A DNA stretch of 17,600 bases. Source: a virus. Position 1 is the stretch's first letter, and every line of letters starts with the position of its first letter. The position numbers and the translations under genes are program-made. The notes beneath the pieces are model-generated. The model was not told the origin of the DNA. It saw only the letters and a program-made list of their open reading frames with translations, and did no database searches. Where the stretch lies: UHGV virus genome UHGV-0195027, one strand, 5' to 3'. Positions 7,465 to 8,466 of this stretch are shown here, in pieces.

Positions 7465-7743
7465 TTACTTGTTCCACTCAGTCAGAATTTGGTTACTAAC
7501 TTCATCTGAGAGATTGTACCAATAAGCTGAGTTATTGGTTGCGTCTACAACAATAAGCTTATCATCACTATCCATGACCGCCCTCACAATTTTGGCTGCA
7601 TCCTCGGCAGAGTAACTACAGTTAACATACCAGTTCGATTCAGTTGTTAAAGCCCAATTTCCTAAAGATTTAATTGCATCATACACAGCCGCATAATCTT
7701 TCGTTTTAATGAGGTCGTAAGTAATAAATAAATTATTAGCCAT
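7465..7743 (-). CDS. hypothetical 92-aa protein in prophage cargo locus; ferredoxin-like pattern with N-terminal ITYDL motif
   Basis: ATG 7741-7743 with GGGAGA 7 nt upstream. AT-rich, about 38% GC. Alternating hydrophobic-strand and amphipathic-helix segments. Stop is followed by hairpin ttaaaggggg/ccccctttaa (7441-7467). Confidence 0.6.
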   Translation of the reverse strand: MANNLFITYDLIKTKDYAAVYDAIKSLGNWALTTESNWYVNCSYSAEDAAKIVRAVMDSDDKLIVVDATNNSAYWYNLSDEVSNQILTEWNK

Positions 7744-7760
7744 AAATCATCTCCCAAAGG

Positions 7761-7789
7761 ACAAAGAAAAAAGCGCCTAGAAAGGCGCT
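7761..7789 (-). terminator. intrinsic terminator or attenuator between the DUF3606-like gene and the 92-aa gene
   Basis: Minus strand reads GAGCGCCT-TTCT-AGGCGCT followed by TTTTTTCTTTG: a 7-bp GC-rich stem, 4-nt loop and U-run, 7 nt after the DUF3606-like stop. Confidence 0.55.
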
Positions 7790-7795
7790 CATATA

Positions 7796-7975
7796 TTAAT
7801 GGTCTTTAAGCCATGCCTGTACTTTCTTAGCCGAATGACCTACAGCCTGTACGGCTTGAACAAGTTTGGCCTCGCTAACTCCAAACTTTTCAGCCCAATC
7901 ACGTCTCTCGTAATCCTGTTTGATACTTATTAAATCATTGTCAGGGGTACCGATTTTGGTCTTATCATCAGCCAT
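7796..7975 (-). CDS. DUF3606-like small protein (59 aa)
   Basis: Core DYERRDWAEKFGVSEAKLVQAVQAVGHSAKKVQAWL matches the DUF3606 pattern as recalled. Start placed at the internal Met (MADDKTK...) because it has AGGA 9 nt upstream; the listed start at 8014 has no ribosome-binding site. Confidence 0.6.
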   Translation of the reverse strand: MADDKTKIGTPDNDLISIKQDYERRDWAEKFGVSEAKLVQAVQAVGHSAKKVQAWLKDH

Positions 7976-8466
7976 TTTACTGATTCCTCGTGATACAGGC
8001 TTATACCTGCCCATTAGTTATATGGCTCCCGTGCTGCTTCGTAAACGTTCAATAATCAAACAATTGACACTGATCATAAAACCAGTTGGAGGATTTGACT
8101 CTAGCTTGGATATATGATGATGCCACCCTCTTTATATTGTTGTCGGTAACTCACAGACATTGAACTCATGCTGGTGAGTGAAAGGCTACATAAACGCCCA
8201 ACATTTAAACTGCCCTCAGCAGCGTTTGCGGAGCAATATACAGGCTTCGTATTCAATCCTTGCCCTACGAGAAACCCTAGCCGTTGCCTCGTTTTCAAGT
8301 GTCAGGAAGTTCTTTGTCAGACCTCATACAGTCTTGGGCTGGGTGAGGTGCATGGGGGAAGTAGAAGCCTTAACTGTTGAGGTAAATCGAACCATAAGTG
8401 TGCAATTTTTCAAGCCCGGCGCTATTTTAGTATTGAAAACAATTAGTACGCCCCCAAGGACAACTC

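Follow-up and report, generated by a model that had tools for sequence, protein, structure and literature searches.

The virus genome UHGV-0195027, a stretch of 17,600 nucleotides (nt) referred to here as the window, is a P2-like prophage remnant of Escherichia coli. It carries a gene of the DUF3606 family and, 3' of it, a gene for a 92 amino acid (aa) protein, and the 52 nt between the two are filled by an intrinsic terminator. The best overall explanation of this arrangement, with a probability of roughly 0.6, is that both genes are served by one promoter, that the terminator attenuates transcription between them, that the 92-aa gene is expressed by read-through, and that the parts are modules that can be exchanged.

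The terminator between the genes

The DUF3606 gene, both of its candidate start codons, the hairpin and the 92-aa gene are all on the minus strand. The hairpin, GAGCGCCU-UUCU-AGGCGCUU at 7790-7771 followed by UUUUUUCUUU at 7770-7761, starts 5 nt past the DUF3606 stop codon and its U-run stops 17 nt short of the ATG of the 92-aa gene at 7743. It was found by a terminator scan and has a predicted stability of -13.3 kcal/mol (z -4.1), which none of 200 shuffled sequences equalled. The stem holds five G-C pairs, and the whole has the sequence features of a Rho-independent terminator. A preliminary description of this DNA had noted a strong hairpin and U-run after the DUF3606 stop codon, with the ribosome-binding site (RBS) and ATG of the 92-aa gene abutting them, and both observations were borne out; the RBS is the GGGAG at 7755-7751.

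The core pairs of the stem, GC-CG-GC-CG-CG, are intact in all 11 distinct variants recovered from different elements, and the position of the hairpin is therefore beyond chance. Four independent changes have occurred in the stem, all of them to G.U, which pairs only in the sense-strand RNA. Each transition has approximately even odds of giving G.U by chance, and the pattern is therefore suggestive but short of conclusive.

Among the Enterobacterales loci that have a small gene upstream of the 92-aa gene, the hairpin (GCGCC / GGCGC core, U-rich tail) ends approximately 25-30 nt 5' of the ATG. Its placement is the same whether the upstream gene encodes DUF3606, a 40-42 aa protein or DUF2188. The terminator of the Yersinia ruckeri DUF3606 gene has an unrelated stem. 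On these alignments this lineage of the 92-aa gene has the hairpin as a conserved component of its 5' flank, one that can be lost together with the upstream gene. The stricter view that the hairpin belongs to the 92-aa gene alone is weakened by loci L078 and L055, between which its gain or loss went along with that of DUF3606 and of the first ~8 codons.

A search of positions 7000-9500 against Rfam returned no riboswitch, attenuator or small RNA, only sub-threshold chance matches. The 96 nt region around the hairpin was also assessed for a larger RNA structure and folds no better than its shuffles (z -0.95); it is therefore the local hairpin alone that is significant.

Transcription of the two genes

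The putative promoter 5' of the DUF3606 gene scores 9/12 in a sigma-70 scan and is both the best and the only 9/12 site on the minus strand from 8470 to 7700. Its predicted transcription start is at ~8010. Both hexamers, with a spacing of 17-18 nt, are kept in the related loci L004, L012, L078 and L055. An imperfect palindrome lies further upstream (Table 1). It is kept in L004, L012 and L055, where its right arm is a perfect ACCAGT, and is possibly the operator for some regulator. In the form ACTGGT-N6-A(T/C)CAGT it is present in four arrangements, including the one that lacks DUF3606.

No further -35/-10 pair scoring at least 8/12 was found within the DUF3606 gene or the 52 nt gap (7975 to 7744). 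The preliminary description had argued that there is no room here for a promoter and that the 92-aa gene must be expressed by read-through. The first part of this agrees with the scan; for the second, 'probably' is the better word. The alternative is that these are two independent genes, in which the hairpin would do no more than end the DUF3606 mRNA, and a separate promoter of the 92-aa gene would start transcription within or after the hairpin, without any read-through. The DUF3606 gene of Y. ruckeri is such a self-contained unit of promoter, gene and terminator, and in the window the A/T-rich TAATATAT at 7798-7791 is a possible weak -10 element. However, besides the result of the scan, just 17 nt separate the U-run from the ATG, and the sequence immediately 5' of the hairpin is not conserved among the loci with different upstream genes. 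Independent transcription of the 92-aa gene is considered unlikely.

Transcription from a single promoter, with attenuation, would proceed as follows. The weak sigma-70-type promoter (TTTACG-17-TATAAC, 8045-8017) would yield a short mRNA for a 59-aa DUF3606 protein, with most transcripts ending at the intrinsic terminator at 7790-7761. A minority would read through, carrying the strong RBS and the 92-aa gene, and would finish at a second, bidirectional terminator at 7462-7441. The hairpin would thus be an intra-operon attenuator that keeps the 92-aa protein, for which a Cas2-like fold is predicted (see below), well below the level of DUF3606. In E. coli, partial read-through of the rplL-rpoB attenuator and of the terminator upstream of dnaG, in rpsU-dnaG-rpoD, lowers the level of the distal gene. 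The present case resembles these in having an intrinsic terminator inside a transcription unit. It differs in that its function is deduced from sequence and in that the flanking genes have no apparent functional link.

Gene neighbourhoods and modular exchange

The neighbourhoods of 36 species-representative loci encoding a relative of the 92-aa protein were compared. DUF3606 is upstream in just one of these, in Pantoea leporis, which has the same cargo at 97% identity; the other 35 have no DUF3606 neighbour. In distant relatives of the 92-aa gene the hairpin is missing and the neighbouring genes are unrelated. Within the Enterobacterales, the gene is typically convergent to a tyrosine integrase gene at the end of islands that have a major capsid gene, and four arrangements are found upstream of it: DUF3606, a 40-42 aa Lys-rich protein, DUF2188 (matches with E 1e-14 to 6e-26), or nothing. 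DUF3606 is likewise found without the 92-aa gene. This is the case in Y. ruckeri, where the promoter-gene-terminator unit ends in a different terminator, and in another P2-like phage, where DUF3606 is between gpD and the repressor.

The DNA sequences of related loci show where the exchanges have occurred. Between the window and island L004, the DUF3606 segment is ~95% identical, whereas the distal two-thirds of the 92-aa gene are ~70% identical. Between L078 and L055, the flanks are ~99% identical and the 92-aa proteins 99% identical, but DUF3606 and the hairpin are present in L078 only. One end of the segment exchanged here is at the -35 hexamer, TTTACG, and the other at ~codon 8 within the 92-aa gene; L055 has the same promoter directly ahead of the 92-aa gene. 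The form lacking DUF3606 is shared, intact and at 100% identity, by 10 complete E. coli genomes, whose sources are chicken, human, pig, sheep and seawater. The DUF3606 and 92-aa pair is present in 102 genomes.

These comparisons suggest that a unit made up of the upstream small gene, the hairpin, the RBS and the first codons has been swapped by recombination, which would have been anchored in the conserved promoter region and in the highly conserved 5' end of the 92-aa gene. Judged by their distribution, the two genes are juxtaposed, interchangeable modules in a facultative association and not obligate partners.

In the Enterobacterales the usual position of the 92-aa gene, as in the E. coli chromosomal loci L054-L056 and in L004-L009, is the last before the tyrosine integrase, in small islands whose other products include a major capsid protein and a ~620-aa TolA-like protein. 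From this gene content the capsid-bearing islands look like satellites. Repeat proteins of 82-85 aa with (A/G)GS(A/V)(L/V)SQ motifs adjoin the 92-aa gene in L004 (3282-3530, minus strand) and L029 (3733-3990, plus strand), in hosts as far apart as E. coli and a deltaproteobacterium. No Pfam family matches them significantly, Con-6 reaching an E of 0.0096 and 16.2 bits against a gathering score of 25 bits.

The 92-aa protein

The 92-aa protein matches PHROG 1090 (E 1e-24). Its family comprises 141 clusters at 90% identity, nearly all of 92-93 aa, and ranges over the Enterobacterales, Xanthomonas, Desulfobacterales, Campylobacteraceae and uncultured phages. In an alignment of sampled homologues the N-terminus, MANNLF(I/V)(T/S)YDL, is nearly invariant, and Y9, D10, W30, S36, W38, Y39, D58, D61 and W90 are invariant.

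In a Foldseek search against the PDB the best matches were to Cas2 proteins and to BPSL1038 (TM-score 0.55-0.6, E ~1e-2, probability up to 1.0), with VapD (9kan) also among the matches. The orphan DNase BPSL1038 is Cas2/VapD-like, with Asp11 as its catalytic residue and a D(X20)SST motif (PMC10491678). The 92-aa protein shares with the Cas2/VapD/BPSL1038 class a length of ~90 aa and an invariant Asp that ends strand 1, in (I/V)(T/S)YDL. Its structural match to BPSL1038 is at 20-22% identity and its Asp10 is in the place equivalent to Asp11. Unlike in BPSL1038, D11(X20)SST is missing, positions 31-33 being A-K/L-V/T with a conserved T-E-S at 34-36.

There are differences from Cas2 as well. The 92-aa protein has no significant match to a Cas2 sequence profile, that to PADLOC Cas2_II being sub-threshold (E 0.019), and none in Pfam, NCBIfam or the PDB sequences. 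No cas1 gene or array of clustered regularly interspaced short palindromic repeats (CRISPR) was seen near the 92-aa gene, the neighbours being phage tail, integrase, capsid and small hypothetical genes. With moderate confidence, the structural comparison makes it an orphan of the Cas2/VapD/BPSL1038 fold class and not a Cas2. Because the ferredoxin-like fold is widespread and scores nearly as good are reached by ACT-like domains, the fold assignment is of moderate strength. A nuclease role of the protein is a candidate only.

The preliminary description had likened the two genes to a toxin-antitoxin pair. DUF3606 would be the antidote, in excess, and the 92-aa Cas2/VapD-fold protein the toxin, held low by the terminator. 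It is the case that a small gene ahead of one for a Cas2-fold protein, on a mobile element, resembles VapX-VapD and VapW-VapD, that VapD is among the fold matches, that in relatives some small gene frequently lies upstream at a comparable distance (52-60 nt), and that a terminator would give the upstream protein in excess. However, the co-occurrence fails both ways, as the 36 neighbourhoods and the solitary DUF3606 genes show. The 10 E. coli genomes lacking DUF3606, from varied hosts, have a 99%-identical 92-aa allele behind the same promoter without any upstream small gene; a toxin requiring DUF3606 could therefore not be maintained there. The divergence of the two genes from those of L004 is discordant. 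The VapXD and VapWD systems also differ in that here the partner is not conserved, the downstream gene is found alone behind the promoter, and a gap with a terminator is present in place of overlapping or coupled open reading frames (ORFs). DUF3606 shows no antitoxin-type DNA-binding fold, neither protein matches a toxin-antitoxin family in Pfam or NCBIfam, and PADLOC gave nothing significant for either (E 0.027 and 0.019). Searches of PADLOC, Pfam, NCBIfam and the PDB sequences with both proteins found nothing significant except DUF3606 itself. A toxin-antitoxin pair is very improbable and is not supported by the comparative data; a looser interaction between DUF3606 and the 92-aa protein is compatible with them.

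Attenuation at the hairpin could also be conditional, with the Cas2-fold protein an effector that stays silent until a protein, stress or phage infection relieves termination. This would make the hairpin a switch in prophage or satellite defence or interference. In its widest form, the unit of hairpin, RBS and Cas2-fold gene would be a conditional switch of Enterobacterales prophages and capsid-bearing satellite-like islands. Its product would be an orphan Cas2/VapD-type nuclease, or a Cas2 mimic that hinders Cas1-Cas2 spacer acquisition, near-silent until released, and the upstream small proteins (DUF3606, DUF2188 and the 40-42 aa protein) would be modulators. The hairpin is indeed kept ahead of the 92-aa gene whichever small gene lies upstream, and all its changes are compatible with pairing in the RNA. 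The positions of the 92-aa gene, in the Z/fun slot of P2 and next to the integrase at the end of capsid-bearing islands, are of the accessory or defence type. Defence genes abound in phage hotspots (PMC9122126, PMC13586616). On the other hand, no alternative anti-terminator structure or Rfam family was found, the wider fold is not unusual, and the arrangement without a hairpin exists and is stable in 10 genomes. Known defence families gave nothing significant, the three cargo proteins having no match in PADLOC-DB v2 better than E 0.019. Both the simpler and the widest form of a conditional switch are quite improbable.

The 59-aa DUF3606 gene

The longest ORF of the DUF3606 gene, 8014-7796, would encode 72 aa. 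An internal Met codon at 7975-7973 gives a 59-aa protein with the same stop codon, TAA at 7798-7796. By comparison with its homologues, the true start is at 7975 and that at 8014 is an over-extension, because several lines of evidence agree. The Pfam DUF3606 profile (PF12244) matches residues 17-70 of the 72-aa ORF over all its positions, 1-54 of 54, at 65.3 bits (E 4.3e-18; gathering score 24.3). PHROG 10779, a profile of 59 positions, aligns exactly to residues 14-72. The RefSeq/PGAP call is of 59 aa (WP_001406733.1). All 20 single-domain homologues, down to 54% identity and 57-63 aa long, begin M-A/P/S-D-D/N-K. In the Y. ruckeri copy the ATG comes straight after an in-frame TAA, and the counterpart of the 8014 ATG in island L004 is GTG. 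The predicted transcription start at ~8010 lies 3' of the 8014 ATG and so would support the start at 7975 as well.

The preliminary description had recognised the DUF3606 gene and had likewise moved its start to 7975, and in both it was right. It had also held that the ATG at 8014 is without an RBS. This needs qualification, as there is a GGGAG at 8030-8026, 11 nt upstream, although this motif is gone from L004.

The corrected start of the 59-aa gene is itself already known in RefSeq. The 72-aa mis-call is found as a 219-bp ORF in the paper describing phage R18C (PMC6823313) and in metagenome gene calls (P0121-P0125), and the GenBank record of R18C (MN016939) annotates an antisense ORF instead. 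In the P2-EC53 record (AJ512682; L001), the DUF3606 frame is broken at 626-742, with a partial match of E 4e-11. This record, of the 2002 era, is 99.5% identical to the window with small indels, and only ORF1 is annotated in it. Sequencing errors probably explain why its small genes are unannotated.

The protein has a full-length match to its family, is of typical size, and keeps the conserved G, P-D and W residues. The family has more than 1,100 clusters. Most of its members are chromosomal, in alpha- and beta-proteobacteria, and are often tandem two-domain proteins of 110-126 aa, many of these being in the alpha-proteobacteria, whereas the present copy is phage-borne. An AlphaFold2 (AF2) model built from 20 sequences has a pLDDT of 76, with a disordered, charged N-terminal tail and three short helices. 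The 59-aa protein may therefore be pictured as a disordered Lys/Asp-rich tail with a small three-helix bundle. A fold search with this model gave weak UBA-like matches and no ribbon-helix-helix, AbrB or Xre-type antitoxin fold. Given the moderate confidence of the model and these weak matches, the fold was set aside as uninformative on DNA binding or an antitoxin role. The literature searched held nothing functional on DUF3606, on DUF8453 or on the WP accessions, and the P2 hotspot studies cover other loci or do not mention this cargo.

The cargo and its origin

The two genes are part of a cargo of ~2.2 kb between the tail-fibre assembly gene G (6717-7244; Caudo_TAP, E 1e-35) and the tail sheath gene FI (9419-10609). 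This is the Z/fun variable slot of P2. In megablast searches with 7250-9420, the whole insert was found in phage R18C at 99.9% identity, in the P2-EC53 'Z-region' record at 99.5%, and in 99 of 5,426 complete E. coli genomes. For the remaining P2-like phages the flanks alone align, covering 13% of the 2.2-kb query. The G+C content of the insert is 39-44%, compared with 54-58% in the tail genes. A variable insert of deviant composition, with promoter-like and terminator sites, is what is seen in phage morons and hotspot cargo. Since the insert is variable and low in G+C, the cargo is regarded, from its sequence, as a horizontally acquired prophage moron.

Its presence, without a function, has already been described for R18C (PMC6823313). 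Identical cargo has been sequenced before, in R18C (MN016939) and P2-EC53 (AJ512682), with the small genes mis-annotated or unannotated. Like the Z/fun (TO) morons of P2, for example fun(Z), it is in the slot between G and FI, is low in G+C, has promoter-like and terminator signals of its own, and is dispensable for the phage. Its genes are, however, unrelated to fun(Z). The arrangement is one of ordinary stacked morons, in which the Cas2/VapD-fold family, with its conserved attenuator-like hairpin and its exchangeable small genes upstream, is the modestly interesting part.

The cargo also holds the remnant of a tyrosine integrase gene (Table 1). This remnant (AITGHTEQKAKKDAFRTYSKGARMKELTQYI and stop) is 64% identical to the integrase of L004 (tblastn, E 1e-11). 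The Z/fun cargo therefore seems, on this similarity, to derive from another integrative island, from whose integrase end it would have been captured.

Table 1. Features of the cargo region in the window (positions are those of the whole stretch)
Feature	Position	Strand	Basis and remarks
Tyrosine integrase remnant, C-terminal ~39 codons	7299-7415	+	tblastn; convergent with the 92-aa gene
Bidirectional terminator-like hairpin, closes the 92-aa gene	7441-7462	both	Terminator scan; homologous GGGGG/CCCCC hairpin in L004 and L078
92-aa gene	7465-7743	-	PHROG 1090; WP_000002748.1
Shine-Dalgarno GGGAG	7751-7755	-	7 nt before ATG 7743; GGGAG or GGAGA in related loci
Intrinsic terminator	7761-7790	-	8-bp stem, 4-nt loop, UUUUUUCUUU tail
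DUF3606 gene, 59 aa	7796-7975	-	Pfam PF12244, PHROG 10779, PGAP, homologue starts
Shine-Dalgarno GAGGA	7985-7989	-	9-nt spacer to ATG at 7975; identical in L004 and L012
Putative sigma-70 promoter	8017-8045	-	TTTACG 8045-8040, 17-nt spacer, TATAAC 8022-8017; from sequence only
Imperfect palindrome ACTGGT-N6-ATCAGT	8069-8086	-	~25 nt 5' of the putative -35; candidate operator
230-aa cargo gene, divergent	8467-9159	+	PHROG 11802; DUF8453 in RefSeq; context only, outside the pair

The third gene of the cargo, for a 230-aa protein, is annotated in the P2-EC53 record as 'ORF1, putative lysogenic conversion protein'. Copies of the DUF3606 and 92-aa pair in integrase islands are without it. The protein has hydrophobic residues at ~13-33, near its N-terminus, and a strong terminator follows the gene at 9295-9315. 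TGT-N12-ACA motifs of the Ogr type, as in P2 late promoters, are present at 8138-8155, in the divergent intergenic region of the cargo, and at 9278-9295, which is the place expected for the FI promoter. The first of these was not relied upon as a late promoter, the number of such motifs in the window being that of chance. Long inverted repeats are annotated in the P2-EC53 record and were not recovered by a repeat search.

The left third of the window (1-6460) is non-P2 DNA. It includes a fragment of a K88-type fimbrial subunit at 34-381, an AraC/GyrI-like regulator split into two ORFs on the minus strand (3959-3675 and 3629-3228), and an IS21-family element with istA (4140-5681) and istB (5693-6442). 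An 83-aa C-terminal ORF is left of the tail-fibre gene H at 6464-6715. Homology to R18C-type prophages starts only at 6671, and the prophage is therefore a remnant cut inside gene H.

Implications

The gene model of this DUF3606 copy is settled at 59 aa; those records that give a 72-aa or an antisense ORF here are in error. A tempting toxin-antitoxin annotation is removed. In its place, attention is drawn to a widespread family of 92-93 aa proteins (PHROG 1090), found at the accessory ends of P2-like prophages and of integrase-bearing islands. Should the conditional switch prove true, the result would be a new family of interference or defence genes carried by mobile elements. There are natural, near-isogenic variants with and without the DUF3606-terminator cassette, making possible a cheap test of both the attenuation and an interaction between the genes. 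The case also illustrates how hotspot cargo may be rebuilt by recombination whose anchor points are a promoter and a 5' coding segment, both of them conserved.

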